64,000 bases of DNA from Candidatus Moraniibacteriota bacterium (GCA_008012175.1 SSEF01000001.1:25061-89060); one strand, 5' to 3'; positions 4,083 to 47,119 are shown, numbered from the stretch's first letter. Numbers and translations: made by a program. The notes: a model not told the origin generated them from the sequence alone.

Positions 4083-4439
4083 ATGCTCGTCATCCGCCTC
4101 AACCGCTTCGGCAAACGCAATCAGGCCCAGTTCCGGGTCGTCCTCCAGGAGAAGACCAAGGCTCCGGGACATCGTCATGTCGAAATGCTCGGCAGCCACA
4201 ACCCACACTCCAAGGTCACGATCCTGAAGAAGGACCGTATCCTGCACTGGATCGGCCAGGGTGCCCAGCCGTCTGATCGGGTGCATAATATGCTCGTAAA
4301 AGAGGGTGTCATCGAGGGAAAGGTCATCCCGAAGAAGATGCCCCGCCCGGTGAAGAAAGAGGAAGAGGCTCCGAAGCCCGAGGAAACGCCCGCTCCAGCT
4401 GCAGAAGTCGCTTCGACAGAAGCTCCGAAGGCAGAGTGA
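4083..4439 (+). CDS. rpsP: 30S ribosomal protein S16 with a Lys/Glu/Pro/Ala-rich C-terminal extension
   Basis: MLVIRLNRFGKRNQAQFRVVLQEKTKAPGHRHVEMLGSHNP matches the S16 family. Tail KKEEEAPKPEETPAPAAEVASTEAPKAE is low-complexity. Confidence 0.85.
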   Translation: MLVIRLNRFGKRNQAQFRVVLQEKTKAPGHRHVEMLGSHNPHSKVTILKKDRILHWIGQGAQPSDRVHNMLVKEGVIEGKVIPKKMPRPVKKEEEAPKPEETPAPAAEVASTEAPKAE

Positions 4440-4440
4440 T

Positions 4441-4633
4441 CGGGGGTTGACGAGGACTCGTTTTCCGTATAGGATGGCACTACAACTGAATACTCCAGAG
4501 ACCTATGGTGCTGTCCGTATCGATTCTGATGTCGGCAGGTAAACCCCTAGCAGGAACACGTCACGGTTTTTTTGGCTGTTCGGTCTCCTGGAAGGGAGGT
4601 TTTTTTGTTTCTTTGCAGTTTACATAATCCAAT
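4441..4633 (+). promoter_or_regulatory. rplJ upstream leader region (possible L10 autoregulatory leader with promoter-like TTGACG and internal U-tracts)
   Basis: A 193-nt untranslated gap directly upstream of rplJ containing TTGACG, hairpin-prone segments and two T7 runs. Classic L10 leaders occupy this position. No structure was computed. Confidence 0.3.
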
Positions 4634-5161
4634 ATGCAGCAGAATAAATCACAGAAGACCGCTCTGGTTGCCGAGGTCGCAGCCAAGGCGAAGGAATCGA
4701 AGGCGCTCGTCTTCGCAAACTTCAAGGGTGTTTCCGTGAAGGACATCACGGCCCTTCGTCGGAGTCTCCGCGAGACGGGATCGAGCTGGCAGGTTCTGAA
4801 GAAGACCCTCCTCAGTCGTGCGCTCGGCGAGGTCGGTGTGAAGGTGGACGCGCGTGGACTCGACGGCCAGATCGGTGTCGCATTCTCGAGCGACGAGGTT
4901 GCCGCCGCCAAAACAATCGCTGATTTTCTCAAGGCGAATAAGGAATCGACACTTTCGATCGTCGGGGGATCGCTCGGTTCCGAGGCGCTCTCGGTGGAAG
5001 CAGTGAAGGCGCTCGCCAAGCTCCCATCGCGAGACGAGCTCCGGGCTCAGCTTGTCGGGACGCTTCAGGCACCGGTGAGCGGATTCGTCCGGACACTCTC
5101 GGGCAATCTCGCTGGTTTGGTCCGAGTGCTCGGTGCAGTGCGCGATAGCAAGGGTGTCTAA
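4634..5161 (+). CDS. rplJ: 50S ribosomal protein L10
   Basis: MQQNKSQKTALVAEVAAKAKESKALVFANFKGVSVKDITALRRSLRETG matches the L10 family. Followed by rplL. Confidence 0.9.
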   Translation: MQQNKSQKTALVAEVAAKAKESKALVFANFKGVSVKDITALRRSLRETGSSWQVLKKTLLSRALGEVGVKVDARGLDGQIGVAFSSDEVAAAKTIADFLKANKESTLSIVGGSLGSEALSVEAVKALAKLPSRDELRAQLVGTLQAPVSGFVRTLSGNLAGLVRVLGAVRDSKGV

Positions 5162-5191
5162 TCAATTTGTAATCATATAATTAGTACGCAT

Positions 5192-5599
5192 ATGTCAGAG
5201 GAAAAGAAGGAAGTCGTTGTGCCGGAGAAGTTCGAGAAGCTCGTTGCCGAGATCGAGAAGATGAGCGTACTTGACCTGTCTGAGCTCGTGAAAGTGCTCG
5301 AGGACAAGTTCGGCGTTTCGGCTGCTGCTCCGATGATGATGGGTGCGATGCCGGCCGCCGCTGGTGCTGCTGAGGCGGCTGAGGAGAAGACTGACTTTGA
5401 TGTCGAGCTCACCGCCGCTGGTGCTCAGAAGATCAACGTGATCAAGGCGGTCCGTGAGGTGACAGGTCTCGGTCTTAAGGAGGCGAAAGATCTCGTCGAT
5501 GGCGCACCGAAGGTCATCAAGGAGAAGGTCGCCAAGGCGGATGCCGAAGCGATGAAGAAGAAGCTCGAGGAAGCCGGTGCGACCGTGAACCTCAAGTAA
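5192..5599 (+). CDS. rplL: 50S ribosomal protein L7/L12
   Basis: Ala-rich flexible hinge ([22 protein letters not shown]) and C-terminal domain [29 protein letters not shown]. Confidence 0.95.
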
Positions 5600-5620
5600 T
5601 CTCAGTTTTCCAGAGATTTC

Positions 5621-5650
5621 AAAAAGACCCCGAAAGGGGTCTTTTGTTTA
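5621..5650 (+). terminator. Intrinsic terminator of rplL (GACCCC-GAAA-GGGGTC followed by TTTTGTTT)
   Basis: Perfect 6-bp GC stem with GAAA tetraloop and a U-tract 25 nt after the rplL stop. Confidence 0.8.
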
Positions 5651-5676
5651 TCTTAAAAATCAAGATCAAATTTTTA

Positions 5677-5707
5677 GGGCCACCTTGAGAGATCTCAAAG
5701 TGGCCCC
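5677..5707. terminator. 31-bp near-perfect palindrome centred on AGATCT between convergent genes; probable terminator hairpin for the minus-strand gene
   Basis: GGGCCACCTTGAGAGATCTCAAAGTGGCCCC; arms GGGCCAC/GTGGCCC and TTGAGA/TCTCAA. Confidence 0.5.
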
Positions 5708-5728
5708 TTGTTCGTGATGCTCAGCTCA

Positions 5729-6088
5729 TCAGGCGGTTTGCTGAGGCACCTTGTCTTCGGATACGACCGGGCTCTTCATCCTCCTTTCGTGTCTGCTCAG
5801 TAGTAGAGCAAACGGAGTGACAGAAAGGAAGGCTGCATAAATCGCAACCATCACGGGAAGGATGAAGGTGGCGAACTTCGCTGCCACGAGCGGAAGACCG
5901 ATGGCCAATATGGCCAGTGCCGGCCTATTGCCAAGGTCTGGGAAGAATGGGTTCAGGATATGTCCCCATACCCAGTCCATCCCGATGTGGGTCAGTAGGC
6001 CGACGAAGCAGAACGTGCAGCCCATCGTCGTCATCCCGAAGCATGAAAGGAAAACGGCCCACCAGCTATCGGGCTTTCTCTTTTGCAT
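5729..6088 (-). CDS. Small integral membrane protein (hypothetical, 3-4 predicted TM helices)
   Basis: Start chosen at MQKRKPDSWWAVFL (ATG at 6088) because GGAGG sits 7 nt upstream; the longer ORF to 6268 has no RBS. Hydrophobic throughout. Confidence 0.5.
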   Translation of the reverse strand: MQKRKPDSWWAVFLSCFGMTTMGCTFCFVGLLTHIGMDWVWGHILNPFFPDLGNRPALAILAIGLPLVAAKFATFILPVMVAIYAAFLSVTPFALLLSRHERRMKSPVVSEDKVPQQTA

Positions 6089-6326
6089 GGACGTTTTACC
6101 TCCAGAAATGGCCCTATAGATAGGCCGGTTAAAGAACTGGTTGACGGAGATCGCCAACATGAAAATATAGCATATTTTTAATGTAATGTCAATTGGGTCA
6201 AGCAACGCCTGAAAGGAGGCCTGTTTTTTGACAAAACACAGGAGAGGAGTAGGATGGCAAAGTATCAATTTTTGGCCTGGACAAGGCTTCTTTTGTTTGC
6301 AAAAAACCCAATAATTTTCTTAGCGT

Positions 6327-8417
6327 ATGTCGCTCGAAGTTGTGCTGGCAGTCCTCCTCCTCATGCTCATTTCTATCGGGACGTATTTTGTTGCGGGCCG
6401 GCTCAAGGTCCCGTATACAGTGTTGCTTGTCATCGTGGGCTCCATCCTGGTCCCGCTCTCGGACTTCCCATTCTTCCAGTTCATCAAGAGTTTTCAGCTG
6501 ACGCCGGAGCTCCTCTTCTTCGTCTTTCTCCCGGTGCTCATCTTCGAGTCGGCGTACAACATGAATATGCGCGAGATGGCGGAGAATATACGCTCTATCT
6601 CATGGCTTTCCGTGGTGAGCCTCATCGTGTCAGCTTTTTTTGTTGCCTTCGCCCTGTTCTGGGGGCTCAAACTGATCGGATTTCCCGTGCCTTTTATGGC
6701 GACCCTCATCTTCGGCGCCCTCATCTCGGCAACGGATCCGGTCGCCGTCCTCGCGCTCTTCAAGGAATTTGGAGTACCGCGACGTCTCTCGCTTATTTTT
6801 GAGGGCGAGAGTCTCTTCAATGACGGCACCTCCTTAGCGCTCTTCCTCATCGTCCTCGAAGTAGCGCTAGCTGGATTCTCCGGGCTTTCAAGTCTGCTCG
6901 AGGGAACTTTCATGTTTACGACTATGGTCGCGGGTGGTGTCGCCTTCGGACTTTTCATGGGATTCGTTTTCGCCAAGCTCATTGGCAAGGTGAAGGACAA
7001 TGAGCATATCGAGATCACGCTGACGATGCTCGTGGCGCACCTCACCTTCATTCTCTCTGAGCTTCTCTCACATCATCTCGTCCTCTTCGGGCAGGAGATA
7101 AAATTTTCCTCCATCATCGCGACGGTCATGGCCTCGATGGTTATCGGGAACTATGGCCGCTTCAAGATCTCTCCGCGCGTTGAGGAGTATATGGAGAAAT
7201 TCTGGGGCTACTTCGCCTTCGTAGCAAACTCGCTCGTGTTCATACTCATGGGGCTCCTTTTTGCCGATCTCCCAATCCGATTTGATCATTTCCTCGTCCC
7301 GATGCTGGTAACTGTCGTCATCGTGATGGTCGGCCGGGCGCTCTCGATCTACCCGGTGGTGGCGATCGTGAATCGTCTGAAAAAAGAAAAGCCTATTCCG
7401 ATGTCTTGGCAGCACCTCCTCGCCTGGGGGAGTCTCCGCGGTGCACTCGCGGTTACTATGGTGCTCCTTATTCCGGATACGCTGACTCTTCCGGGCTGGA
7501 ACTATGATTTTACTGTGAAGGAATTCATCGCGGCGATCACGATCGGCTGCATCTACTTTACGTTGTGCATCAAGGCGACCTCGATCGGGACGATGATAAA
7601 AAGGATGAAGCTGTCTGATCTGACGCCGCTTGAAACAGTGGAATACCATGAGTGTTCAGCGCTCATCTATCAGGAGGCGCTCGAGAAGCTAGAAGATTTT
7701 CATGCGAAGGGCTATGTGAAGAGCGATGTCTTCGAACGGCTGAAGAGTGAGTACGCTGAGCGCTATGAGAAATCAGTCGCTTCCTGTAGGGCGCTCTTTG
7801 CGGCCACTCCGGCCGACATGGGCCGGGCGCTTCAGATGTACGCGCTCGGTATGGAAAAGCGCTTCCTAAAAGAGCTTTATGTCTATCAAGAGATCTCGGA
7901 GTCGGAGTACAAGGAGATCCTGAATAAGATCGCTATTCAGACTAATCGCGTTGAAGAAGGCGAAGAGCAGCTTGTTCACCACGCGGAGCGTTTCCATCAG
8001 GATTGGTTTGAGAGGCTTATTGCTTGGTTTCGAGAGAAGTTCTGTACCAGGCCGGCGAAGCAGGAACTCCTTGAAGAATACCGGTACTATAGGGCGCAGG
8101 AAGTGGTTCTCGCCAAAGTGCTGCGCCGCCTAAAGTCAATTGCCGAACGTTTTCCTGGCCTCTACGGAGACGATGCCTCAATTCGTTCGGTTACTACCCT
8201 CTACGAGGGATTGCGGGCTGATGCCGGCCAAAAACGTGACGGTGTGGCGGCTCAAATCGGAACGGAACTCATCTATCTAAACGAATCGTTCGGACGCTAT
8301 GCGCTCTTCAAGACGGAAGAGCGGATGCTTGAGGAGCTTCTGGAGAATGCGATGCTGCCACGCAAAGTAGCAAATATGCTCTATAATGAGCTGAGAGATG
8401 AGGCATATTCGATCTAA
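6327..8417 (+). CDS. Monovalent cation:proton antiporter, CPA1 family (NhaP-type) with a long cytoplasmic C-terminal domain
   Basis: About 12 TM helices; motifs FLPVLIFESAYNMN, ISATDPVAV and FEGESLFNDGTSLALF typical of NhaP/NHE-type exchangers. Confidence 0.85.
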   Translation: MSLEVVLAVLLLMLISIGTYFVAGRLKVPYTVLLVIVGSILVPLSDFPFFQFIKSFQLTPELLFFVFLPVLIFESAYNMNMREMAENIRSISWLSVVSLIVSAFFVAFALFWGLKLIGFPVPFMATLIFGALISATDPVAVLALFKEFGVPRRLSLIFEGESLFNDGTSLALFLIVLEVALAGFSGLSSLLEGTFMFTTMVAGGVAFGLFMGFVFAKLIGKVKDNEHIEITLTMLVAHLTFILSELLSHHLVLFGQEIKFSSIIATVMASMVIGNYGRFKISPRVEEYMEKFWGYFAFVANSLVFILMGLLFADLPIRFDHFLVPMLVTVVIVMVGRALSIYPVVAIVNRLKKEKPIPMSWQHLLAWGSLRGALAVTMVLLIPDTLTLPGWNYDFTVKEFIAAITIGCIYFTLCIKATSIGTMIKRMKLSDLTPLETVEYHECSALIYQEALEKLEDFHAKGYVKSDVFERLKSEYAERYEKSVASCRALFAATPADMGRALQMYALGMEKRFLKELYVYQEISESEYKEILNKIAIQTNRVEEGEEQLVHHAERFHQDWFERLIAWFREKFCTRPAKQELLEEYRYYRAQEVVLAKVLRRLKSIAERFPGLYGDDASIRSVTTLYEGLRADAGQKRDGVAAQIGTELIYLNESFGRYALFKTEERMLEELLENAMLPRKVANMLYNELRDEAYSI

Positions 8418-8433
8418 GTATCACGATTAATTT

Positions 8434-9069
8434 ATGGAATTCTTCGGTATCGACATGGTGCAGGCGATCAAGACGGTTGGATATGTCGGACTCTTCGGTA
8501 TTGTATTCGCGGAAACAGGGCTCTTCCTCGGGTTTTTCTTTCCGGGTGACAGTCTCCTCTTCGTTGCGGGAGTGCTCGCGGCTCAGGGATTTTTCTCGCT
8601 CCCCATCCTTTTAATTATCCTCTTTATTGCGGCCTTCACTGGCAACATGGTTGGATATTGGTTCGGTGCTTTTGTTGGGCCAAAAATCTTTACTCGTGAG
8701 GACTCGCTTCTTTTCCGACGGTCGCATATCCTGAAGGCGCAGGCATTTTACGAACGCTATGGCGGCAAGACAATTGTCTTGGCGCGTTTCATCCCGATCG
8801 TCAGGACCTTCGCGCCAATCGTTGCTGGCGTGGCACGGATGCATTATGGAACGTTTGCCTTCTTTAATTTTATTGGAGCCTTGCTCTGGTCGGTCGGATT
8901 GACGACGGCAGCGTACTATCTCGGCAGTCTGATCGAGGATATCGACCGCTACCTTTTGCCGATCATAGTGCTCATTATTTTCCTGTCGGTTTTGCCGGGC
9001 ATCTTTGAATACTGGCGTGATCGGAGAGAAGCCAAGGCGAACGGCGAGTCGGCCATGGACAAAAGATAG
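8434..9069 (+). CDS. DedA/VTT-domain (SNARE-associated) membrane protein
   Basis: FFPGDSLLFVAG...YERYGGKTIVLARFIPIVRTFAPIVAG is the DedA family signature. Confidence 0.85.
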   Translation: MEFFGIDMVQAIKTVGYVGLFGIVFAETGLFLGFFFPGDSLLFVAGVLAAQGFFSLPILLIILFIAAFTGNMVGYWFGAFVGPKIFTREDSLLFRRSHILKAQAFYERYGGKTIVLARFIPIVRTFAPIVAGVARMHYGTFAFFNFIGALLWSVGLTTAAYYLGSLIEDIDRYLLPIIVLIIFLSVLPGIFEYWRDRREAKANGESAMDKR

Positions 9070-9150
9070 ATCAAGGAGTATGCTAGCCGGGTGAAAAACC
9101 GGATGCTGCTGTTCTATTTTTTATTTTTCTGAACGAGAGAGACTTTCGCT

Positions 9151-9687
9151 ATGTACCGCATGCTGAAGAAAATCCTGATGACGCCGCTTGTTGCAGAGAG
9201 CGAGAGAGATATCCGCGGATCGGAATTCGAGGTAGTTGGTGCGGCTGTGAAAGAACGGGCGAAGAGAGTGTTCGGCGGATCGATTGCGATCCGTGAAGTG
9301 GCAGCCGGATCGAGTAATGCAGAAGAGCAGGAGCTCACAGCTTTGACGAACGCCTACTATGATGTCGAGCGTTTTGGTGTTCATTTCGTCGCCTCTCCTC
9401 GGCATGCTGATATGCTGTTCGTGACGGGTCCGGTCAGTCGTAACATGGCCGATGGCGTCCGCCACGCATATGAAGCGATGCCAACACCAAAGTGGGTCGT
9501 AGCGGTCGGGGATGGCGCGATCGACGGCGGTATCTATCGCGATTCGTATGCTGTTTACAACAGCGTCGGAGATCTTATCCCGGTAGACTTCAAGATCCCG
9601 GGCGATCCGCCGTCACCTCTGGTAATTCTGAAAGCCATCCTTGAAATGCTTGACACCATTGATGCACATCGTCCTGACAAAGCCTAG
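9151..9687 (+). CDS. NuoB / [NiFe]-hydrogenase small-subunit homologue lacking all four [4Fe-4S]-ligating cysteines (EhrS-like)
   Basis: Aligns to the HycG/NuoB core (ASPRHADMLFVTGPV, VVAVGDGAIDGG, IPGDPP). The canonical GSCNGCE / GxCAxxGG / GCPP positions read GSSNAEE / GDGAIDGG / GDPP. The whole protein contains zero Cys. Confidence 0.8.
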   Translation: MYRMLKKILMTPLVAESERDIRGSEFEVVGAAVKERAKRVFGGSIAIREVAAGSSNAEEQELTALTNAYYDVERFGVHFVASPRHADMLFVTGPVSRNMADGVRHAYEAMPTPKWVVAVGDGAIDGGIYRDSYAVYNSVGDLIPVDFKIPGDPPSPLVILKAILEMLDTIDAHRPDKA

Positions 9688-9690
9688 GCT

Positions 9691-11748
9691 ATGGAATTTT
9701 TTCTGACTCAAGAGGCGCTGTTCCTTTTCGTAGGCCTTTTCCTTTTTGGGGCTATCGCTTCATTTATTGCTGATGTATGGATGAACGATGGCGGCCGACT
9801 GGCGAATCTCTTAGCGCATGGCGCGGCTATGATCGGTTCGTTCGTTGGATTCATAATGGCGGTAGTAGTCCTCGTGAATGGTCGAGGTGTCAATTGGGAG
9901 TTTGAAAGCGCCTTCCCGCTCCTCGAGCTTTCCTTTCGCCTCGATGGCATGAGCGCTTTTTTCCTCGGGCTCTCAGCCTGTATCGGAGTCCTTGCCTCGA
10001 TATACGGCTATGGCTATCAGCGGCACTTTATCGGGAGCGGCCGGCTCGGCTCGTACGGATTTTTCTACAACCTCTTCGTTGGGAGCTTGCTCCTTGTAGG
10101 AGTCGCGAATCAGGCGCTCTTCTTTCTCCTTATTTGGGAGATGATGTCTCTCGCATCTTACTTCCTTGTCGTTTTCGAGCGTGAGAAAATTGAAAATGTC
10201 AGAGCCGGCTTTCTCTATTTCCTCATGACTCATTTCGGAACGGCATTTATCGTGTTGGCATGCCTCTTAGCCTACCATGCGACCGGTTCATTCTCATTCG
10301 ATGCATGGCGTGAGGCATTCGGAACGCTTTCTTCCGGTACAGAATTCCTTATCCTCAGCTCTGCCCTTATTGGTTTTGCGACAAAAGCTGGGCTCATCCC
10401 GCTCCATATCTGGCTGCCAGAAGCTCATCCTGCAGCGCCGTCCCATGTCTCGGCTCTCATGTCTGGTATCATGGTGAAAACGGCGCTTTTCATGCTGTTC
10501 AGGTTCTTCTTCGATTTTTTTCAAGGCGCACGCGTTGAATGGGGGGTAGCATTTCTTATTATTGGGGCCATCTCGGCGATTCTAGGCATCCTTTATGCCA
10601 ATGCAGAGCGCGATCTGAAGCGAATCCTCGCCTATAGCACGGTTGAAAATGTAGGTATCATCACGATCGCCTTTGGCGCCGGTCTGGCGCTGTTTGCACT
10701 GGATCAGGAAAGGGTAGCGCTGTTTGCGCTCGCCGCCGCTTTTTACCACCTTGTAAATCATGCAGTCTTCAAGTCGCTTCTATTTTTCGGAGCAGGCTCT
10801 GTCGTGAGCACAACCGGTACGCGGAATACGGAATCGTATGGCGGACTGATTCGGGTAATGCCGTATACCGCCGCCTTTTTCCTCATTGGTTCTCTGGCAA
10901 TTTCAGCCCTGCCTCCGTTTAATGGATTTGTGAGCGAGTGGCTGACTTTTCAGGTTCTGTTCGTCGGGATTGTCGGGGCTCCGCTTGCCGTGAAGTCAGC
11001 TTTTCTCTTTGCACTGGCCGCACTTGTTTTCACAAGCGGACTGGCGCTTGCCTGTTTCGTAAAAGTCTTTGGAATCACTTTTCTTGCTCGGCCGCGGACG
11101 GATGGAGCGAAGGATGCCTGTGAGGTATCGTGGCTCATGCTGTCGCCGATGGCACTCCTCTCGATTGCTACACTGGCACTCGGACTCTTTTCATCTCATG
11201 TGCTTTCCGCCCTGACGGGAGTTGTTGCGAGCATCGGATTGACAAATCCAGCAACTTTACGTTTTCCATTTCTCGAAATCATCGCTTCGCGCCATGCGTT
11301 TGCTGACGTCTTACCGCTCGCTATGATTGCTATATTTCTTGTAATTACCTTGGCTGTCGTGTTTATGACTATCCGCATCATGACGCGCAATCGGACTGTG
11401 ACGATCGGTCCGACCTGGGACTGCGGATTTCCGCTCTCTGGACGGAACGAAATTACAGCGACCAGCTTTTCCCGATCGCTCGTCACTATTTTCCGCGGCG
11501 TGCTCCGCCCGACCCGACAGTCGATGATCGAATACCATGATGAACAAACGCGTTATTTTGTGAAGGCCGCATCCATCGAGACGGGACTCCAGGACATCTA
11601 TCGTGAACGGCTGTATTATCCGGCTGGTAAAATGTTGCATTTCTTGGCTGACCGTATCCGACGCATCCAGACAGGCAATGTGAATATGTATATTCTTTAC
11701 CTCGCTCTCGCATTAATTGGTGCGCTTCTCTGGGCAGCGCGAGCTTGA
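9691..11748 (+). CDS. NuoL/MrpA/HyfB-like antiporter-type membrane subunit
   Basis: 685 aa polytopic protein with the conserved WLPEAHPAAPSHVSALMSG... motif of complex I subunit L / Mrp antiporter subunit A. Confidence 0.85.
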   Translation: MEFFLTQEALFLFVGLFLFGAIASFIADVWMNDGGRLANLLAHGAAMIGSFVGFIMAVVVLVNGRGVNWEFESAFPLLELSFRLDGMSAFFLGLSACIGVLASIYGYGYQRHFIGSGRLGSYGFFYNLFVGSLLLVGVANQALFFLLIWEMMSLASYFLVVFEREKIENVRAGFLYFLMTHFGTAFIVLACLLAYHATGSFSFDAWREAFGTLSSGTEFLILSSALIGFATKAGLIPLHIWLPEAHPAAPSHVSALMSGIMVKTALFMLFRFFFDFFQGARVEWGVAFLIIGAISAILGILYANAERDLKRILAYSTVENVGIITIAFGAGLALFALDQERVALFALAAAFYHLVNHAVFKSLLFFGAGSVVSTTGTRNTESYGGLIRVMPYTAAFFLIGSLAISALPPFNGFVSEWLTFQVLFVGIVGAPLAVKSAFLFALAALVFTSGLALACFVKVFGITFLARPRTDGAKDACEVSWLMLSPMALLSIATLALGLFSSHVLSALTGVVASIGLTNPATLRFPFLEIIASRHAFADVLPLAMIAIFLVITLAVVFMTIRIMTRNRTVTIGPTWDCGFPLSGRNEITATSFSRSLVTIFRGVLRPTRQSMIEYHDEQTRYFVKAASIETGLQDIYRERLYYPAGKMLHFLADRIRRIQTGNVNMYILYLALALIGALLWAARA

Positions 11749-11758
11749 TTGCATACCT

Positions 11759-12733
11759 ATGACCACAAGCATCCTCTTCCTTGTTTTCCAGGTTGTCGCT
11801 GTCCCGACATTTTCACCTCTCATGATCGGAATCATCCGAAAAATGAAAGCGCGGCTTCAGGGGCGGGTCGGTGCGGATATCTTTCAACCATATCGTGATC
11901 TCCGGAAGCTTTTCTCCAAGGATGAGGTTATTTCATCTGATGCATCGTGGATCACGCGTTTCGCACCGTATGTCATTTTTTCAATTACGCTTCTTCTTGG
12001 CGCAACCGTGCCGCTTGTGACGGCGATAGCACCAATGATTCCGGGTCGGCCCGATCTTCTCTTGACGGCGACCGGCGATTTTCTCGTTATTGCCTACCTG
12101 TTTGCTCTTATGACATTTTTTCTCGCGCTCGCCGGCATGGATGCCGGAAGCGGCTTCGGTGGCTTTGGATCAAGCCGTGAAATGATGGTGGCTGCGCTTG
12201 CAGAGGCTGGTCTCATCTTCTCGCTTCTCCCAGCATCGTTTCTTGCAGGAACGGGACATATCCTCGACATGATCGGGCAGCTCGAAAATTTACCAATGAC
12301 ATCAGCCTTTCCGCTTTTTGTCGCTTTCCTTGCCTTCCTTATCGCGCTCCTTGCAGAGAACGCTCGATTCCCGGTGGATAATCCTGCGACACATCTTGAG
12401 CTCACTATGATTCACGAAGCGATGCTGCTCGAGTATTCGGGCAAGCGTCTGGCGCTCATGGAATGGGCGGGCGCCAACAAGCTCATGATTTTCATCGCGC
12501 TCGCCGTCAACATCTTCTTCCCTTGGGGGGTTGCTTTCGAGTTCTCTTCTCTTCAATCCCTTGCTGTTCCGGTGCTCATATTCTCAGTCAAGTCCTTGGG
12601 TCTTCTCATGCTGATCGCACTTATCGAGTCGCTTATGGCGAAGTTCCGGATCTTCCGAGTCCCAGATCTCCTTTTCACCTCATTTGTTCTCGGCATGATT
12701 GCCGTAGTATTGACCGTCTCGCTCACCGTCTAA
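11759..12733 (+). CDS. NuoH/HycD-like membrane subunit
   Basis: LMIGIIRKMKARLQGRVGADIFQPYRDLRKLFSKDEVIS matches the NuoH/HycD N-terminal signature. ATG at 11759 chosen because the longer ORF overlaps the upstream gene. Confidence 0.8.
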   Translation: MTTSILFLVFQVVAVPTFSPLMIGIIRKMKARLQGRVGADIFQPYRDLRKLFSKDEVISSDASWITRFAPYVIFSITLLLGATVPLVTAIAPMIPGRPDLLLTATGDFLVIAYLFALMTFFLALAGMDAGSGFGGFGSSREMMVAALAEAGLIFSLLPASFLAGTGHILDMIGQLENLPMTSAFPLFVAFLAFLIALLAENARFPVDNPATHLELTMIHEAMLLEYSGKRLALMEWAGANKLMIFIALAVNIFFPWGVAFEFSSLQSLAVPVLIFSVKSLGLLMLIALIESLMAKFRIFRVPDLLFTSFVLGMIAVVLTVSLTV

Positions 12734-13404
12734 TGATTTCCCATATGGAATCCCAGTTTCTCCAACTCGCCCTCTCGCTCGACCTGCTGGCCTTCATGGC
12801 TGTTATCGGGCTTCATCTGGTGAAGAGTACGAAGTATACGGTCAGGCTGTACGCTCTTCAGTCAGTAGCAGTTGCGGCCGTGCTTGTCATCTTAGGCATG
12901 GCAAAGGATGAACAGGGGCTTGTTGCAATCGGCATGATCACATTCTTCGCCAAAGTGATCATCGCCCCACTCCTTTTCTCCCGCCTGGTTCACCGATTCG
13001 GCAATTTAGTCGCGAGCGCCAGCTACCTCTCAACACCAGCGACGCTTGCAGTGCTTCTCGGACTCATTGTCTTTGCGGCCTCCTCGGTCTTTGATCCTCT
13101 CTGGAGTATCGCAGCCGTCACGCCGGATGTCTTCGTTTTCAATATCGCCATGGTTCTTATCGCGATCTTCCTCCTTATTAATCGGCAAGGCGCATTGGCT
13201 CAGATTATTGCCATCCTGGCACTTGAGAATAGCATCGTGCTCTTCGCTCTCTTCATCGGCGTGAAGCAGACCCTTGCCCTTGAGCTCGGCATCATTTTTG
13301 ACATCGTGATCTGGATGGTGATTGCCTACGCCTTTCTCCGTCTCGTCTATCGCCAGTTCGGATCATTGGATACTCGCGAGATGCGACAGCTGATTGAAGA
13401 CTAA
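12733..13404 (+). CDS. HyfE/NuoK-like small membrane subunit
   Basis: Entirely hydrophobic 223-aa protein (ILALENSIVLFALF...). Start overlaps the upstream stop (TAATG). The ORF-track extension to 12463 lies inside the previous gene. Confidence 0.6.
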   Translation: MISHMESQFLQLALSLDLLAFMAVIGLHLVKSTKYTVRLYALQSVAVAAVLVILGMAKDEQGLVAIGMITFFAKVIIAPLLFSRLVHRFGNLVASASYLSTPATLAVLLGLIVFAASSVFDPLWSIAAVTPDVFVFNIAMVLIAIFLLINRQGALAQIIAILALENSIVLFALFIGVKQTLALELGIIFDIVIWMVIAYAFLRLVYRQFGSLDTREMRQLIED

Positions 13405-13413
13405 GGAAACCAT

Positions 13414-14862
13414 ATGCTCCTCACTCTTGTATTCGTTCCATTTCTTACCGCACTTCTGGCCTTTCTCCTGCCGGCGAAGAAGACTCGCTTTATAGAAGCC
13501 GGGGTGATCATGGCGGCCGGAATCGAGCTTGCTTTGGCGGTGAGATGCATAAGCGTCATAGCGGCAGGCAATCTGGTCCGCGGGACGGCATCTTTGGCTA
13601 TTGATAGCCTTTCAAGCTTCCTGATCCTCCTGATCGCATTGGTCGGATTCTTCGTCTCACTGTATTCTGTCGGCTACCTTCGTACAGAGGTCGGGAAGGG
13701 GATTATCGGACCACGCCGAGTACGCCAGTTCTTCATCCTGCTCGAACTTTTTCTCTTCGCGATGTATCTGGCAGTTGCTACGGTGAATCCGATTATCACG
13801 TGGATCGCGATCGAGGCCACGACTCTAGCGACGGCATTTCTTATCAGCTTCTATAACAAGCCAACAGCAACTGAGGCAGCCTGGAAGTACCTCATCCTGA
13901 ATTCCCTTGGTCTCCTCATTGGCCTCCTTGGCACCCTCGTGTTTATTGCTATTCTCGGTGATCGGTCCGGAGCAGCAATCTGGTCGGAGATGGTAGCCTC
14001 TGCCGGTACGGTATCGCCAGCTGCGATAAAGATCGCTTTCGTATTCATCCTTATCGGATATGGCACCAAGGTCGGCCTTGTCCCGCTCCATGCGTGGCTG
14101 CCAGATGCTCACAGCAAGGCTCCATCGCCTATCTCAGCGCTTCTTTCCGGTGTTCTTCTCAATGTCGCCCTCTTTGCGGTGTTGCGCTGGAAAGAAGCGG
14201 CCGATGTCGCGCTCGGAAGCGATCAGTTCACGGGCGGACTGCTGATCTTCTTTGGTCTGCTCTCGGTTTTTCTCGCAGCATTCATCATTTTTGTTCAGCA
14301 GAACTACAAGCGTCTCTTGGCCTACTCAAGCATTGAGCATATGGGGCTCATAGTGATCGGTTTTGGTCTTGGAGGGGTGGGGACGATCGCTGGCCTTCTC
14401 CATATGCTCTACCATGCATTGGCAAAGTCGATGCTCTTCCTTCTGGCAGGCAATATCTTTCTTCGCTATAGCTCGACAAAGCTGAAAAATGTCAGCGGCC
14501 TTATTGAGGCACTGCCACTTTCGGGACCCCTGTTTTTTGCCGGTATTCTCATGCTGTCTGGATTGCCACCATTTGCTATCTTTATGACGAAATCACTCAT
14601 CCTTTCGGCGGGTATCGCTTTCTCGCCATGGCTAGTCGGAGCGCTGCTCATCGTACTTTCCGTCATGTTCTTCGGCCTGTTCCGTTTTGTCACCAAGCTC
14701 GCCTACGGGCCGGTTCCGGAGGGAATCGAGCAGGGAGAAGCGCATTTCCTGACGCAACTCCCAGTAATCCTTCTTTTCGCCCTGCTTCTCGTCTTGAGTT
14801 GGTATATGCCTGAGACGCTTGATACGGTTCTGGCTTCCATCCGAGAGACCTTCTTACGCTAA
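13414..14862 (+). CDS. NuoN/NuoM/HyfF-like antiporter-type membrane subunit
   Basis: 482 aa, about 14 TM, with motif LVPLHAWLPDAHSKAPSPISALLSG typical of complex I subunits M/N and Mrp subunit D. Confidence 0.8.
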   Translation: MLLTLVFVPFLTALLAFLLPAKKTRFIEAGVIMAAGIELALAVRCISVIAAGNLVRGTASLAIDSLSSFLILLIALVGFFVSLYSVGYLRTEVGKGIIGPRRVRQFFILLELFLFAMYLAVATVNPIITWIAIEATTLATAFLISFYNKPTATEAAWKYLILNSLGLLIGLLGTLVFIAILGDRSGAAIWSEMVASAGTVSPAAIKIAFVFILIGYGTKVGLVPLHAWLPDAHSKAPSPISALLSGVLLNVALFAVLRWKEAADVALGSDQFTGGLLIFFGLLSVFLAAFIIFVQQNYKRLLAYSSIEHMGLIVIGFGLGGVGTIAGLLHMLYHALAKSMLFLLAGNIFLRYSSTKLKNVSGLIEALPLSGPLFFAGILMLSGLPPFAIFMTKSLILSAGIAFSPWLVGALLIVLSVMFFGLFRFVTKLAYGPVPEGIEQGEAHFLTQLPVILLFALLLVLSWYMPETLDTVLASIRETFLR

Positions 14863-14874
14863 GCGACTACCTCT

Positions 14875-16461
14875 ATGATCGACCCAAAGAATCTTCTTCA
14901 ACGCTTCGGACTCGGTATTACCGAATCGAAAGTCGAGGATAACCGTATCTTGTTCGAAATCAATGCATCAGAACTTTCTTCCGTGGTTCGGACTCTGAAG
15001 AAAAATCATGCTTTGCCACTGAAGACGGTTACGGGGAGTGATGAACGCGCGATGGGGAGAAATTTCCGTATTTATTATGTTTTCGGAATCCCGAAGGAAA
15101 ACGTCTTCCTTATACCTTTCATTTCCGTGAGCGCAGAGAATCCCTCTTTCCCATCTCTGACGCCAGAGGATCAGGAATTTTCCATGTATGAACGTGAGAT
15201 CCTGACCTTTTTCGGGCTTATGCCAATTGGACATCCGGCTCCAGAGCGTATCACGCTTCATTCGGAAAATTTCCCCAAGGATATCCATCCGCTTCGGAAA
15301 GAGTTCAGATGGAATACGCCGATTGTCGAGCCGAAGGAGAAGGAATGGCCTACGTTCAAGAAATACGAAGGCGAGGGTGTCTACGAGATACCGGTTGGAC
15401 CGGTCCATGCTGGCATTATCGAACCGGGGCATTTTCGTTTCAGCGTGCTTGGCGAGGAAATCCTCCGTCTCGAGCCGCGGCTTGGCTATGTGCACAAGGG
15501 GACGGAGAAGCTTTTTGAGGCGCTTCCCTCGGAGCGGCAGGTAGCTTTAGCTGAGCGCATCTCAGGCGATAGCTCGTTTCATCATGCACTTGCCTATTGT
15601 CAGGCAATCGAATCGCTCGCTTCAACAGAGATCCCGAAGAGAAGTCTCTACCTTCGGATGATCATGGCCGAGCTCGAGCGTCTCGCCAATCACTATAACG
15701 ACCTTGCGTTCATCATGCTCGATACGGGGCTTGCTTTCGGTGGAAGCCAAGGAACGCGGCTCCGCGAGCGAGTACTGCAGTGGCATGAGCGCCTCACCGG
15801 CAGCCGGTTTCTACGCGGCGTGCTGGCACCGGGCGGACTCCTGAAGGATGTGCCGAAGCATGAGCTGGACGCGCTCAGAATCGACCTCATCGATCTTGAG
15901 AATGACTTTATTGAGGTGATGGAAGCAGTTTCCGAGAGTCTCTCCCTTCTCAATCGACTTCAGAATACTGGCCGCCTCGAGCGCTCGATCGGTGAGGATC
16001 ACGGCATCGTGGGCATCGGGGCGCGGGCGATCGGCCTCGAACGTGATGCGCGGATTGATTTTCCATACGCCGCCTACGATTCGGTCCATTTTTCTGTCCC
16101 AACCGAGGCAGATGGCGATGTGTATGCTCGCTATAAGGTCCGGGAACGCGAGATCCATCAGTCATTCAAGATAATCCACCAATCAATCGATCGAGCGATT
16201 TCGTCTAACGGGCCGGTCAGTATACCGATCGGCAATCTCGCTCCGAATGCTCACGCCGTCGGTCTCGTCGAGGGCTGGCGCGGGGACATCGTCTATTTCG
16301 TCCTGACCGATGCATCGGGCCTCATCATGCGGGTCAAAGTGCGCGACCCGTCGTTCCTTAACTGGCAGGTATTTCCGTATCTTGTGACAAGCGATATGGT
16401 TCCCGACTTCCCACTCATCAACAAGAGCCTCAATCTTTCTTATACGGGCAATGACCTCTGA
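14875..16461 (+). CDS. Fused NuoC-NuoD / HycE-like large subunit lacking the [NiFe]-site cysteines (EhrL-like)
   Basis: N-terminal NuoC-like domain, then a NuoD/large-subunit domain (IPVGPVHAGIIEPGHFRF...). The RxCGxC and DPCxxC positions read GPVHAG and RDPSFLNW. Only one Cys in 528 aa. Confidence 0.8.
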   Translation: MIDPKNLLQRFGLGITESKVEDNRILFEINASELSSVVRTLKKNHALPLKTVTGSDERAMGRNFRIYYVFGIPKENVFLIPFISVSAENPSFPSLTPEDQEFSMYEREILTFFGLMPIGHPAPERITLHSENFPKDIHPLRKEFRWNTPIVEPKEKEWPTFKKYEGEGVYEIPVGPVHAGIIEPGHFRFSVLGEEILRLEPRLGYVHKGTEKLFEALPSERQVALAERISGDSSFHHALAYCQAIESLASTEIPKRSLYLRMIMAELERLANHYNDLAFIMLDTGLAFGGSQGTRLRERVLQWHERLTGSRFLRGVLAPGGLLKDVPKHELDALRIDLIDLENDFIEVMEAVSESLSLLNRLQNTGRLERSIGEDHGIVGIGARAIGLERDARIDFPYAAYDSVHFSVPTEADGDVYARYKVREREIHQSFKIIHQSIDRAISSNGPVSIPIGNLAPNAHAVGLVEGWRGDIVYFVLTDASGLIMRVKVRDPSFLNWQVFPYLVTSDMVPDFPLINKSLNLSYTGNDL

Positions 16462-16634
16462 CCCGTTTGATGAAAGCCTTCTTTTCCCTCCGGAATGCGC
16501 TACGCTTGGGGTGCCTGCCATACACCGGTGAAGGGAGGAGGGTATCGACACAAGCGTACTGTTCATTCGTTCGCTCTGTATGCCGCCAACCTGGGACGGC
16601 ACTGGTCGCGAGAGACCGGTGCCTCTTTCTTGCG

Positions 16635-17012
16635 CTAGTGATGCATCCTATTGGAATCCGGATACCATTCTTTTTCCCATTCTTGCATCATATCGATCTC
16701 CTTTGTTTGTGCGGCAATGATGTCTTCGGCAAGCTTCCGAAGCTCGGGACGTTTTGAAGTCTCTAGCACCTGCTTAGCCATTGCTACGGCACCTTCATGA
16801 TGAATGACCATTTCTTGGAGGAATGCCTGATCAAACGTATCTCCTGTCTTTCCGGTGAGGCTGGCGGTCATGCTGTCCATACTTTCCTCCATGGTCATCT
16901 GGCTATGATCCATCGGGGCCTGGGCCGTCTTGGCTCCCCAGAGGCCGTAGCCGAGAGTGAGACCGATGCCAAGCGATACCAGGCCGAGATAGAGCGACTT
17001 GTTTGTTCCCAT
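16635..17012 (-). CDS. DUF305-family protein (metal-associated, signal peptide/TM at N-terminus)
   Basis: FDQAFLQEMVIHHEGAVAMAKQ...DIIAAQTKEIDMMQEW is the DUF305 signature. Confidence 0.8.
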   Translation of the reverse strand: MGTNKSLYLGLVSLGIGLTLGYGLWGAKTAQAPMDHSQMTMEESMDSMTASLTGKTGDTFDQAFLQEMVIHHEGAVAMAKQVLETSKRPELRKLAEDIIAAQTKEIDMMQEWEKEWYPDSNRMHH

Positions 17013-17046
17013 AGCGATACTTCCTACGGATTACTTCTCCTTCTTA

Positions 17047-17075
17047 GTATACTGCAACAAAAAACCGCCCCAGAG
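17047..17075 (-). terminator. Intrinsic terminator after the csp gene (minus strand)
   Basis: On the minus strand: GCCGTCCC-TCTG-GGGCGG followed by TTTTTTG, 30 nt downstream of the csp stop. Confidence 0.5.
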
Positions 17076-17106
17076 GGACGGCTTTATTGTTCGCAGGAGG
17101 AATGCC

Positions 17107-17304
17107 TTAGGCGCGGGTCACATTGACCGCGGCCGGGCCCTTCTCGGCCTCGATGACCTCGAAGCTGACGACATCGCCAACCTTGAGCTCGTCGAACGTC
17201 ACGCCGGAGAGCTCCTTGGAGTGGAAGAACAGATCCTTCGTCTCGCCTTCGCGAGCGATGAAACCGAATCCACGGTCCGTGAGCGTCTTGATAGTACCAG
17301 TCAT
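17107..17304 (-). CDS. csp: Cold-shock protein, CspA family
   Basis: MTGTIKTLTDRGFGFIAREGETKDLFFHSKEL carries the RNP1/RNP2 motifs of CspA. About 155-nt 5' UTR, typical of csp genes. Confidence 0.9.
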   Translation of the reverse strand: MTGTIKTLTDRGFGFIAREGETKDLFFHSKELSGVTFDELKVGDVVSFEVIEAEKGPAAVNVTRA

Positions 17305-17409
17305 AATGGTGCTGCTCTACATTTCAATTAATCTAGAATACGGGAAACTCGACTATATTCCTCGGCTTCTATTGCGTAGAGAATAGCATGTTTCCGAGAA
17401 AAAGGCAAC

Positions 17410-17437
17410 TTGCCACTCGAGACCGTCGTGCTATCCT
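17410..17437 (+). promoter_or_regulatory. Candidate sigma70-type promoter for the GFA gene (TTGCCA, 16-nt spacer, TATCCT)
   Basis: Read directly; RBS AGGGAGG 5 nt before the ATG at 17462. Confidence 0.35.
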
Positions 17438-17461
17438 GGGAGAAATAACAGGGAGGAAAAT

Positions 17462-17815
17462 ATGGAAAAATTTCATGGAAGATGCCACTGTGGAGCAGTG
17501 ACGTTTGAGGCTGAGGCGGAACTCAATCCCATTCTCGAATGTAACTGTTCCCACTGTAGTGTAAAAGGCCTGCTGCTCGCGTTCGTACCCGCCACACAAT
17601 TCCGACTCTTGTCCGGCGAGGCTGATCTTTCCGAATACCGGTTCAACAAGAAGGTGATAGCCCATCTTTTCTGCAAGCACTGCGGCGTCCAGCCTTTCGG
17701 CCGGGGACAGGATCCGGCTACGGGCGCAGAAACGGTCGCGATCAATGTCCGGACGCTTGCGGGCGTGGATGCTTCGAAGCTGACTCTGACACCGTTCGAT
17801 GGAAAGAGCTGGTAG
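17462..17815 (+). CDS. GFA-family (CENP-V/glutathione-dependent formaldehyde-activating enzyme-like) zinc protein
   Basis: GRCHCGAV...CNCSHCS...CKHCG cysteine pattern of the GFA domain. Confidence 0.8.
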   Translation: MEKFHGRCHCGAVTFEAEAELNPILECNCSHCSVKGLLLAFVPATQFRLLSGEADLSEYRFNKKVIAHLFCKHCGVQPFGRGQDPATGAETVAINVRTLAGVDASKLTLTPFDGKSW

Positions 17816-46251: not shown

Positions 46252-46263
46252 TGAAAACGAAAA

Positions 46264-46776: not shown

Positions 46777-46832
46777 AGGGGAGAAAAAAGGAACCAGGCG
46801 TCTGCCTGATTCCTCCTCGGCGACAGAGGGAA

Positions 46833-47102: not shown

Positions 47103-47119
47103 AAGGTATTTCTTATGAG

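Follow-up and report, generated by a model that had tools for sequence, protein, structure and literature searches.

The Ehr (energy-converting hydrogenase-related) complex of Geobacter sulfurreducens (GSU0739-45; EhrA-D, EhrL and EhrS) is built from the same six subunit types as the complex encoded by the locus considered here, and its large subunit is likewise devoid of the NiFe cysteines and carries the signature S-G-D-[ST]...S-Y-x-G. In contrast to the Geobacter-type complexes, the small subunit of our locus has lost all four [4Fe-4S] cysteines, its gene is the first and not the last in the operon, the NuoI-like domain is absent, and the clade is marked by K235 in EhrD and, in most members, by the E184Q replacement in EhrC. 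The same six-gene layout is also found in the group 4f/Hyf [NiFe] hydrogenases (E. coli hydrogenase 4 and the Thermincola and Ectobacillus loci), whose HyfB, HyfC, HyfE and HyfF proteins are the best family matches for our membrane subunits and whose beta1-beta2 loop and C-terminal PDFPLINKSF motif recur in our locus with near-identical residues. The locus differs from this group, however, in lacking NiFe ligands, a C-terminal maturation peptide, nearby hyp genes and the HyfH/NuoI-like 2x[4Fe-4S] domain, which in Thermincola is fused to the small subunit.

That the large subunit is cysteine-less in CPR Ehr complexes is known from Jaffe et al. 2020 (BMC Biol 18:69; PMC7304191). As far as the text of that paper was searched, it describes a group that is monophyletic within Ehr and lacks the metal-binding cysteines, and that is probably the clade of our locus; it deals with the large subunit only, and neither the small subunit nor the ion-path residues nor the synteny is brought up. 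Of the novelty claimed in a preliminary description of this DNA, the loss in the small subunit stands as new, while the cysteine-less large subunit had already been published there. The conserved ion-path residues, the low dN/dS and the synteny with atp, NhaP and DedA genes are also new.

Organization of the locus

The window, as we call the whole 64,000-nucleotide stretch (64 kb) analysed, comes from Candidatus Moraniibacteriota (CPR/Patescibacteria). Six closely packed genes at 9151-16461 (+) form a complete Ehr-type set in the order NuoB/HycG-like, HyfB/NuoL-like, HyfC/NuoH-like, HyfE-like, HyfF/NuoN-like and fused NuoC-NuoD/HycE-like, the six co-directional ORFs being spaced by 3, 10, -1, 9 and 12 nt. 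The ORF coordinates and the Pfam and NCBIfam assignments agree with the six-gene operon on one strand that was originally proposed, and the same databases identify both neighbours named at that time, a Na+/H+ antiporter and a DedA protein. The features are as follows.

6228..6255, + strand: promoter-like site TTGACA-16-TAGGAT, 5' of the NhaP gene (consensus scan only, 10/12 match)
6327..8417, + strand: NhaP/CPA1-type Na+/H+ exchanger, 696 aa (Pfam Na_H_Exchanger, E 3.5e-54; NCBIfam TIGR00831, E 9e-75)
8434..9069, + strand: DedA/VTT-domain membrane protein, 211 aa (Pfam VTT_dom, E 1.5e-17; NCBIfam DedA family, E 5e-55)
9056..9084, + strand: weak promoter-like site at the 81-nt DedA-EhrS spacer (consensus scan, 9/12 match)
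9151..9687, + strand: EhrS, NuoB/HycG/MbhJ-like small subunit, 178 aa (Pfam Oxidored_q6/NuoB, E 3e-23)
9691..11748, + strand: EhrA, HyfB/NuoL/MrpA-like antiporter-type subunit, 685 aa (NCBIfam HyfB, E 2e-187)
11759..12733, + strand: EhrB, HyfC/HycD/NuoH-like subunit, 324 aa (Pfam NADHdh/NuoH, E 5e-40)
12733..13404, + strand: EhrC, HyfE-like subunit, 223 aa, C-terminal half NuoK-like (NCBIfam HyfE, E 3.5e-15)
13414..14862, + strand: EhrD, HyfF/NuoN/MrpD-like antiporter-type subunit, 482 aa (NCBIfam HyfF, E 2e-130)
14875..16461, + strand: EhrL, fused NuoC + NuoD/HycE-like large subunit, 528 aa (Pfam Complex1_30kDa + Complex1_49kDa)
16598..16623, + strand: terminator-like hairpin, 10-bp stem with 7 GC pairs and a T-rich tail (pattern scan)

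The start of EhrB is placed at 11759 according to independent gene calls on identical contigs (the ORF list has a TTG at 11717). Its stop codon overlaps the EhrC start by 1 nt; EhrC also has a weak match to Pfam Oxidored_q2. Among 170 related loci fetched, many of which end at a contig edge, the complete ones carry the same six genes. The NhaP-type exchanger, which has a C-terminal extension of about 270 aa, is a conserved neighbour and not an Ehr subunit, and so is DedA, which lies directly 5' of the operon here and is kept upstream of it in four relatives; the NhaP-DedA-Ehr order is retained in relatives whose large subunits are 84, 65 and 53% identical to ours. The promoter-like site upstream of NhaP may mark the start of a common NhaP-DedA-Ehr transcription unit, and the terminator-like hairpin, the match listed first by the pattern scan of a 12-kb region, lies about 137 nt past the EhrL stop codon.

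Former cofactor sites of the peripheral subunits

The cytoplasmic cap consists only of the NuoB-like subunit and the fused NuoC-NuoD-like subunit. EhrS contains no cysteine at all, as had been noticed at first sight, but the initial reading of its four cluster positions as S/A/D/D has to be corrected: alignment to MbhJ, Nqo6 and NDUFS7 places S55/E58/G122/D152 at the former [4Fe-4S] ligand positions, and none of the cluster N2 cysteines of complex I NuoB has a counterpart in EhrS in these alignments. The S-E-G-D combination is found in 112 of the 119 closest EhrS homologue clusters, and 107/119 are cysteine-free. The AF2 model of EhrS has the NuoB fold (mean pLDDT 79.9) and carries no information on metals.

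The large subunit aligns at the residue level with HycE (7z0s_E, E 2.7e-65). In this alignment the HycE motif RvCGiCGF becomes RISGDSSF, the cysteines being replaced by S230 and S233, and DPCYSC becomes NLSYTG, with S522 and G525 in place of the cysteines (RISGDS spans 227-233 and NLSYTG 520-525); neither the L1 (RxCGxC) nor the L2 (DPCxxC) motif of group 4 [NiFe] hydrogenases is present in EhrL. These are the true replacements, and not GPVHAG and DPSFLNW as previously proposed. The latter two correspond to the conserved beta1-beta2 loop and the R-x-P-S-F-x-N motif, common to all family members. The only cysteine in the 528 residues, a count that proved right, is C242, which is not a ligand. 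EhrL ends in ...GNDL, three residues past the last former cysteine position, without the maturation extension, while HycE runs on. The quinone-site Tyr87 and His38 of respiratory complex I (NDH-1; Nqo4 numbering) are also missing: H38 aligns to I182 and Y87 to G231 of EhrL.

When aligned to solved structures, the predicted cap is thus shown to carry no ligand set for a NiFe centre, a proximal [4Fe-4S] cluster or the complex I quinone site; all eight metal ligands are absent even after realignment, so that the central claim of the preliminary description survives the correction of its motifs. At the same time, the altered site is strictly maintained. In 16 homologues E227, S230, G231, D232, H237, S522, Y523, G525, D527 and the beta1-beta2 loop are invariant, and these site residues are also common to other Ehr complexes. 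D232 is an Ehr-specific gain, A, V or I being found at this position in the NiFe sisters.

Placement among Ehr complexes and the search for redox partners

Assignment of the complex to the Ehr type is supported because three lines agree: the six-subunit composition, the large-subunit signature and the grouping of the NuoD-like subunit with Ehr sequences, beside the group 4f enzymes, in a neighbour-joining tree without support values. The signature S-G-D-[ST]...S-Y-x-G is common to 76 Ehr-type large subunits including ours, and eight sister NiFe enzymes carry C-G-x-C...C-x-x-C instead. The Ehr reading first offered is therefore upheld, and so is the loss of ligands from both peripheral subunits, but the latter is not typical of Ehr. 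Of 60 Ehr operons that fall outside the clade of our locus, 59 retain all four small-subunit cysteines (C-C-C-C) and some also keep a fused NuoI-like 2x[4Fe-4S] domain; our complex is therefore a derived variant.

Judging by these comparisons, the small-subunit ligand loss would be confined to a CPR-centred subclade, a restriction that has not been described before. Two operon types or more have lost the cluster, one being the B-first CPR-centred clade and another a B-last lineage with D-[ATV]-D-N. Among Ehr lineages the NuoI-like domain shows successive stages of degeneration, and the large-subunit site is identical in Ehr complexes with and without the small-subunit cluster. As a second new point, our locus stands at the end of a series in which the electron wire is lost step by step. 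The repeated cluster loss, the NuoI-like degeneration and the unchanged large-subunit site suggest that Ehr function is independent of electron delivery.

The absence of partner genes points in the same direction as the earlier statement that a NuoI/HycF-like ferredoxin subunit and hyp genes are missing: the six frames of the 64 kb window contain no CxxCxxCxxxC motif, and no members of the Hyp, NuoI, NuoEFG or Fdh families were found among 30 further larger ORFs. NuoA, NuoJ, NuoI, NuoEFG or an equivalent input module are absent from the operon and the scanned ORFs. The window does encode a SUF system and a KorAB-like 2-oxoacid:ferredoxin oxidoreductase (OFOR), from which it follows that the organism makes Fe-S proteins and that the loss is specific to the Ehr complex. 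KorAB had been listed previously together with a ferredoxin; the oxidoreductase is there, but a canonical 2x[4Fe-4S] ferredoxin was not found in the window.

Since KorAB-type enzymes reduce ferredoxin in characterised homologues, one might still imagine a redox-driven pump which receives electrons from subunits encoded elsewhere, or from OFOR-made ferredoxin, through a cofactor that is not ligated by cysteines. Other Ehr complexes do keep the proximal cluster and sometimes the NuoI-like domain, and Margulisbacteria and Saganbacteria have been proposed to possess an FDH-Ehr complex (PMC6349859). We regard this scheme as improbable. In the cysteine-free EhrS only E58, D152 and S55 stand at ligand positions, too few for a cluster, EhrL has neither the NiFe ligands nor the quinone-site Tyr/His, no electron-input gene lies beside the operon in any of about 26 clade loci, and the window scans revealed no Fdh, NuoEF or NuoI.

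Membrane arm and proposed function

The membrane part resembles a miniature complex I arm made of a NuoH-like, a HyfE-like and two antiporter-type subunits. EhrA can be aligned over its entire length with the HyfB and NuoL models (residues 14-682 for NuoL), and its E150, K232, H246, K263, H357 and K361 are kept in nearly all of 71 homologues; the same is true of E134, K219, H334 and K338 of EhrD among 83 homologues, K235 being clade-specific (E or Q elsewhere). Nearly all homologues of EhrB, which matches HycD (7z0s_D, E 1.6e-41), keep E141, E149, E200, D207, E214, E220, E225, E290 and R297, and nearly all those of EhrC keep E165; E184 of EhrC is present here and is Q in 9/12 clade members. 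The Mrp-type set of a TM5 Glu and the TM7, TM8 and TM12 Lys/His residues is complete in both EhrA (E150, K232, K263, K361) and EhrD (E134, K219, K338). All the charged ion-carrying residues of complex I, Mbh and Mrp are present in the arm.

All six genes are under strong purifying selection, with dN/dS of 0.05 for the cap subunits (EhrS 0.050, EhrL 0.049) and 0.05-0.08 for the membrane subunits, compared to 0.04-0.05 for ribosomal L10 and L7/L12. The reductive nature of CPR genomes and the loss of all cofactor ligands could suggest that hydrogenase genes are here in decay and have no function left, but values of about 0.05, on par with ribosomal proteins, already contradict this. The six ORFs are intact with coupled spacing, more than 100 homologue clusters share the same replacement residues, the ion-path residues are kept in nearly all homologues, and the operon persists in genomes that, at about 1 Mb, have little room to spare; decay is thus highly implausible.

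The function that we consider most likely, with a probability of about 0.5, is that of a redox-independent, gradient-driven cation/proton transporter. The Ehr complex would no longer carry out redox chemistry and would perform an Mrp-like exchange, probably of Na+ (or K+) for H+. Protons would pass through the antiporter-type subunits, the NuoH/HyfE region may carry the counter-ion or gate the path, and the NuoB/NuoCD cap, with Ser/Asp/Glu in place of metal ligands, might act as a structural lid or gate at the cytoplasmic entrance. A precedent is provided by the deactive mitochondrial complex I, which behaves as a Na+/H+ antiporter when its redox domain is disconnected (PMC3464577), although that state is reversible and leaves the cofactors present, whereas here evolution has removed them. 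The Mrp antiporter likewise possesses a pair of MrpA/MrpD-type subunits in which the Glu/Lys/His set is complete, and its secondary, gradient-driven exchange without redox input would be the mode of our complex by analogy. The locus lacks, however, MrpB, C, E, F and G, its only small membrane subunit being HyfE-like, and has NuoH-, NuoB- and NuoCD-like subunits foreign to Mrp. Since the missing Mrp subunits are thought to form the Na+ path in Mrp and Mbh, the ion specificity is a guess.

The beta1-beta2 loop GPVHAGIIEPGHFRF, residues of the NuoH loop and the former active site, which serve coupling in redox-driven relatives, are invariant; this would seem to exceed what a passive lid requires and could point to ligand chemistry at the former active site. 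The Ser/Asp/His pocket would then bind, for example, a cation, some metabolite or a partner protein, or support other non-redox chemistry, its occupancy driving or gating translocation, and the complex would work as a ligand-coupled pump, as a sensor or in the regulation of ATP synthase and ion balance rather than as a plain antiporter. The invariant EhrL residues from E227 to D527 and the beta1-beta2 loop would suit such a pocket, as would the Ehr-specific D232, the tight linkage to the atp operon described below, and the carboxylates found in the small subunit exactly at former cluster-ligand positions (D/T-C-D-D, S-E-G-D, D-A-D-N), where they could provide a mononuclear cation site. Such conservation is equally to be expected, however, if the residues serve only to keep the NuoB/NuoD/NuoH interface together. 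The AF2 model is uninformative on metals, and no candidate ligand or conserved partner gene has emerged, the neighbours varying by lineage. We hold this explanation to be unlikely, albeit less so than electron input from elsewhere.

Under the gradient-driven transporter reading, a fermenter that has no respiratory chain would use the complex to convert the H+ and Na+ gradients generated by the F1Fo ATPase into each other or to keep them in balance, a role that fits the position of the operon by NhaP and DedA here and by the atp operon in sister lineages. The synteny with atp, NhaP and DedA genes is suggestive and partly reflects the shared ancestry of the loci. Genes of the atp operon were seen in none of the cysteine-complete loci examined and adjoin the Ehr operon in 8 of about 26 sister loci, the gamma-beta-epsilon genes lying immediately 5' in seven of them (L003, L060, L074, L087, L091, L098 and L108) and atp genes flanking the Ehr cluster in the eighth (L004). 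The neighbours of the Ehr operon otherwise vary among lineages.

The Ehr operon and its missing ligands

The operon comprises six genes, assigned to families by profile searches and listed here in the order 5' to 3':

9151-9687, plus strand: EhrS, small subunit, NuoB/Oxidored_q6 family, 178 aa (E 3e-23)
9691-11748, plus strand: EhrA, HyfB/NuoL-type subunit, 685 aa (E 2e-187)
11759-12733, plus strand: EhrB, NuoH/NADHdh family, 324 aa (E 5e-40)
12733-13404, plus strand: EhrC, HyfE family, 223 aa (E 3.5e-15)
13414-14862, plus strand: EhrD, HyfF/NuoN-type subunit, 482 aa (E 2e-130)
14875-16461, plus strand: EhrL, large subunit, a fusion of NuoC (Complex1_30kDa) and NuoD/HycE (Complex1_49kDa), 528 aa

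The spacers between these ORFs are 3, 10, -1, 9 and 12 nt, and gene calls made independently on identical contigs in public databases yield these six products too. Among solved structures, the nearest relatives are MbhJ for EhrS (E 4.5e-24), HycE of E. coli formate hydrogenlyase for EhrL (E 2.7e-65) and HycD for the NuoH-like EhrB (E 1.6e-41). At the protein level EhrL has a 100% identical match in an NCBI MAG named Candidatus Moraniibacteriota. The preliminary description had proposed a six-gene complex-I/group-4-hydrogenase-like operon of the Ehr type at 9151-16461; the ORFs and their families bear this out, and the complex has the Ehr composition, together with the Ehr signature in its large subunit.

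The complex carries no ligands for a NiFe centre, a [4Fe-4S] cluster or a quinone site. EhrS contains no Cys and EhrL only C242, in line with the earlier counts. Alignment with MbhJ, Nqo6 and NDUFS7 places S55, E58, G122 and D152 (motifs GSSNAEE, VGDGA and PGDPP) at the four cluster-ligand positions of EhrS, which had initially been read as S/A/D/D, and alignment with HycE puts RISGDSSF at the site of RvCGiCGF and NLSYTG at that of DPCYSC. The segments of EhrL formerly taken for the replaced NiFe motifs are a conserved beta1-beta2 loop (GPVHAG) and a motif common to all relatives (DPSFLNW). The loss of ligands that was originally claimed is thus upheld by alignment to solved structures, and the positions of the motifs have to be corrected. 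A true hydrogenase with misaligned cysteines is excluded, as EhrS has no Cys whatsoever and C242 lies off the ligand positions. The quinone-site residues H38 and Y87 of Nqo4 correspond to I182 and G231 in EhrL, and a complex-I-type quinone reductase is rejected because this Tyr/His site is absent. EhrL ends three residues past the last former Cys position and is therefore devoid of a C-terminal maturation peptide.

The complex also stands without a nearby electron-input module. When 30 further larger ORFs of the window were searched with Pfam, neither Hyp nor NuoI, NuoEFG or formate dehydrogenase proteins turned up, and the CxxCxxCxxxC motif is absent from all reading frames of the 64 kb, in agreement with the initial impression that a NuoI/HycF-like subunit and hyp genes are missing. 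Genes for a KorAB-type 2-oxoacid:ferredoxin oxidoreductase, for SufS and SufBD and for an Fe-S assembly protein are present in the window, so the organism makes Fe-S proteins and the ligand loss is specific to the Ehr complex. A hidden redox partner driving the complex is considered less likely. The genes beside operons of the window's clade vary, among them a cytochrome c552-like gene (Firestonebacteria), a Pyr_redox_2 gene (Endomicrobiales) and a malic enzyme gene (Saccharibacteria), and no conserved redox partner adjoining these operons was found. With every redox ligand lost, the clade's function is argued not to be electron transfer. A Cup/Dab-type CO2-hydration partner was also considered and was not encountered among the neighbouring ORFs scanned.

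The oxidoreductase genes (43700-46251) adjoin that of the Fe-S assembly protein (46453-46776, minus strand). The SUF genes of this region (43700-51850 as a whole) lie on the minus strand, with SufS at 47493-48758 and SufBD at 49316-50722; judged by position, the minus-strand ORFs 50725-51501 and 51446-51850 are a putative SufC and a putative Rrf2-like regulator.

Loss of the small-subunit cluster among Ehr relatives

A pattern scan for the large subunit, with one genome per species, found relatives in at least 591 species-level genomes, and the Ehr-bearing taxa include Nitrospira, Acidobacteria, Rokubacteria, ammonia-oxidising archaea, Firmicutes and CPR. In the 80 loci retained from the matches for comparison of gene order, the small subunit comes first in CPR, Rokubacteria, Chloroflexia and Binatia, and last in Nitrospira, Acidobacteria, Verrucomicrobia, Firmicutes and Thaumarchaeota; the latter arrangement is presumably that of the Geobacter ehr cluster. 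Eight large subunits of the retained loci are of the true NiFe type (C-C-C-C). The Ehr signature, S/A-x-S-G at the former Cys positions plus an Asp gained at 232, is found in 76 other sequences including that of the window, and it does not differ between large subunits whose partner keeps its cluster and those whose partner has lost it. Two Nitrospirota MAGs (L043:4772-19841 and L073:1-14012) each carry two complete Ehr operons in tandem on one strand, with an SSSG-type large subunit in one operon, an STSG-type large subunit in the other and Cys-complete small subunits in both.

The loss of the small-subunit cluster is clade-specific. Outside the clade of the window, 59 of 60 Ehr operons keep all four Cys; within the gene-order set, ligand loss is confined to the loci nearest the window, and the ligand-less loci group together in a neighbour-joining tree built without support values. 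At the four ligand positions, S-E-G-D or T-E-G-D is found in the window, its Moranbacteria relatives and loci L001, L067 and L074, and D/T-C-D/G-D/N in Daviesbacteria, Saccharibacteria, Magasanikbacteria, Firestonebacteria, Endomicrobiales and a 3-Mb genome. Of the 119 nearest small-subunit clusters from a collection of 5.8 billion proteins, 112 have S-E-G-D and 107 have no Cys. This CPR-centred clade is also represented in a 3.08-Mb contig (L088) and in Firestonebacteria, Endomicrobiales and Fibrobacteria MAGs. Public MAG records assign sequences of this clade, namely L001, L006 and the proteins P0016 and P0291, to Bdellovibrionales, Thermoleophilia and Undibacterium, which could reflect either lateral transfer or mis-binning.

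Nine further small-subunit-first loci without ligands came from a metagenome scan, as did a second cluster-less lineage, in which the small subunit comes last and reads D-[ATV]-D-N (motifs GSDNAxEIE...VGDDAC...PGNPP). It comprises ten metagenome contigs (L105, L109, L119, L123, L128, L137, L146, L148, L152 and L168), six of which also carry the large subunit, there of the SGDESG type. Ligand-less small subunits occur with both gene orders, and at least two operon types have therefore lost the cluster.

The window is the end member of a reductive series. At one extreme, the small subunit bears an N-terminal NuoI/HyfH-like domain with two CxxCxxCxxxC motifs, as in the true NiFe enzyme of Thermincola and in the Ehr small subunits of a Firmicutes-like group (SESG-type) and of Vicinamibacteria. 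In Verrucomicrobia and Acidobacteria the Ehr small-subunit ORF is similarly long and lacks the canonical motif; among such ORFs only that of the Verrucomicrobia locus L012 has a confirmed NuoI-like match (E 2.7e-14). Nitrospira and Rokubacteria have the NuoB domain alone with its four Cys, and in the CPR-centred clade these Cys are missing as well.

The confirmed match lies in the extension of L012:11378-12229 and is to NuoI/HycF models. Verrucomicrobia and Acidobacteria ORFs reaching about 110 residues beyond the NuoB domain are found in L012, L015, L017, L027, L035, L037, L039, L044, L056, L058 and L059; as they have no canonical CxxCxxCxxxC, their ferredoxin domain appears cluster-less, and the NuoB part retains four Cys. 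A Chloroflexota MAG (JALYXG010000207.1, L075:8600-12280) combines a large subunit having all four NiFe Cys with an E-C-E-D small subunit (GSENSCDWE, VGDEAC and PGDPP) whose ORF still holds one ferredoxin-type motif; either a shift in the alignment or a NiFe site that lacks its proximal cluster could account for this.

Conservation, ion paths and linked genes

The Ehr complex is under strong purifying selection. Against L090, a relative with an 84% identical protein, dN/dS is 0.050 for the small subunit, 0.049 for the large subunit and 0.052-0.083 for the four membrane subunits, next to 0.043 for L10 and 0.049 for L7/L12, all of these ratios being approximate since dS (0.6-2.2) is close to saturation. 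E58, G122 and D152 of EhrS are invariant in one alignment of homologues, and S230, G231, D232, H237, S522, Y523, G525 and D527 of EhrL in another; a pseudogene or dead remnant is ruled out by the dN/dS values and by conservation. The AlphaFold2 monomer model of EhrS, confident overall (mean pLDDT 79.9), has the NuoB/PSST/MbhJ fold, with less confident stretches at residues 15-20 near the N-terminus and in the former CxxC loop (56-64). In the main rival explanation, the strongly conserved former active site would bind a non-redox ligand or a cation and thereby gate transport.

The predicted ion paths are intact. No more than six of the 68-83 homologues aligned for the subunit in question deviate at any of the following residues: E150, K232, H246, K263, H357 and K361 of EhrA; E134, K219, H334 and K338 of EhrD; E141, E149, E200, D207, E214, E220, E225, E290 and R297 of EhrB; and E165 of EhrC. 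Two positions are clade-specific: K235 of EhrD, elsewhere E or Q, and E184 of EhrC, which is E in the window and Q in most members of the D/T-C-D-D type.

The complex is linked to genes handling ion gradients. As noticed at the outset, a Na+/H+ antiporter and a DedA protein are its neighbours: the gene of an NhaP-type exchanger is followed after 16 nt by dedA and after a further 81 nt by the Ehr operon. Pattern scans mark a promoter-like site 5' of the exchanger gene and terminator-like hairpins at 5622-5645 and 16598-16623. Relatives retain the NhaP-DedA-Ehr order at identities of 84, 65 and 53%, and DedA-Ehr at 56%. Some E. coli DedA proteins depend on protons and are required for tolerance of alkaline conditions, as would suit a gene cluster for ion homeostasis. 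The exchanger (6327-8417) is extended at its cytoplasmic C-terminus by about 270 residues (roughly 430-696), which lie outside the Pfam match and which NCBIfam TIGR00831 covers only as far as residue 538; the extra length is retained in relatives (692-702 aa).

In seven other loci of the clade (L003, L060, L074, L087, L091, L098 and L108) the F1Fo genes atpG-atpD-atpC (gamma, beta, epsilon) lie directly upstream on the same strand, and in a Daviesbacteria locus (L004) the Ehr cluster lies between atpD and atpC. Such linkage, seen in 8 of about 26 small-subunit-first cluster-less loci and in none of more than 100 Cys-complete loci or of the second cluster-less lineage, carries no formal probability, as the atp-linked loci are mutually related. 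In L004:2932-20714 (MAG JAQTZF010000001.1) the Ehr cluster (4263-11506, plus strand) and about 5 kb of other genes separate atpD (16265-17647, minus strand) from atpC (2932-3360, minus strand), and the atp operon appears to have been split by insertion.

Proposed function

Complexes of the Ehr type are already known (Geobacter GSU0739-45), and the literature calls their function unknown, none having been assigned since they were named in Geobacter. Cys-less Ehr large subunits were reported in 2020 as a monophyletic CPR group (PMC7304191), the searched part of that text not treating the small subunit. In our literature search, the coverage of which is incomplete, we found no description of a cluster-less Ehr small subunit or its clade restriction, nor of the reductive series or the atp/NhaP/DedA-Ehr synteny.

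We infer that the window's Ehr complex is most likely a redox-independent, gradient-driven cation/proton transporter, in which the NuoB/NuoCD cap would act as a lid or gate. There is a precedent in the deactive mitochondrial complex I, which, with its redox domain disconnected, behaves as a Na+/H+ antiporter (PMC3464577). A further step, which we regard as possible and rather doubtful, is that in CPR the NuoB-NuoD-NuoH "adaptor" common to complex I and membrane hydrogenases might have become a redox-free gate lined by carboxylates and hydroxyls, the assembly being a complex-I-shaped secondary ion transporter that partners the F1Fo ATPase and sets or converts the membrane gradient of ultra-small fermenters. 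On this reading, the loss of the cluster in at least two operon types with the large-subunit site unchanged would make Ehr complexes in general ion machines that need no electron transfer.

A variant without any redox ligand, with predicted ion paths intact and under strong purifying selection, narrows the question of Ehr function, and the clade's complex, small and free of cofactors, lends itself to expression, transport assays and cryo-EM. In the study of complex I it may serve as a natural test of the NuoB/NuoD/NuoH coupling module without the driving redox reaction. For the biology of CPR, it suggests that organisms without a respiratory chain have a conserved, atp-linked device with which they manage their membrane ion gradients.

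Elsewhere in the window, a 678-aa protein (26439-28475) combines type IV secretion coupling-protein domains (TrwB_AAD_bind and TraG-D_C) with a treble-clef zinc finger, and a 727-aa protein (39671-41854) with three Laminin_G_3 (concanavalin-like lectin) domains is possibly a surface or attachment protein.
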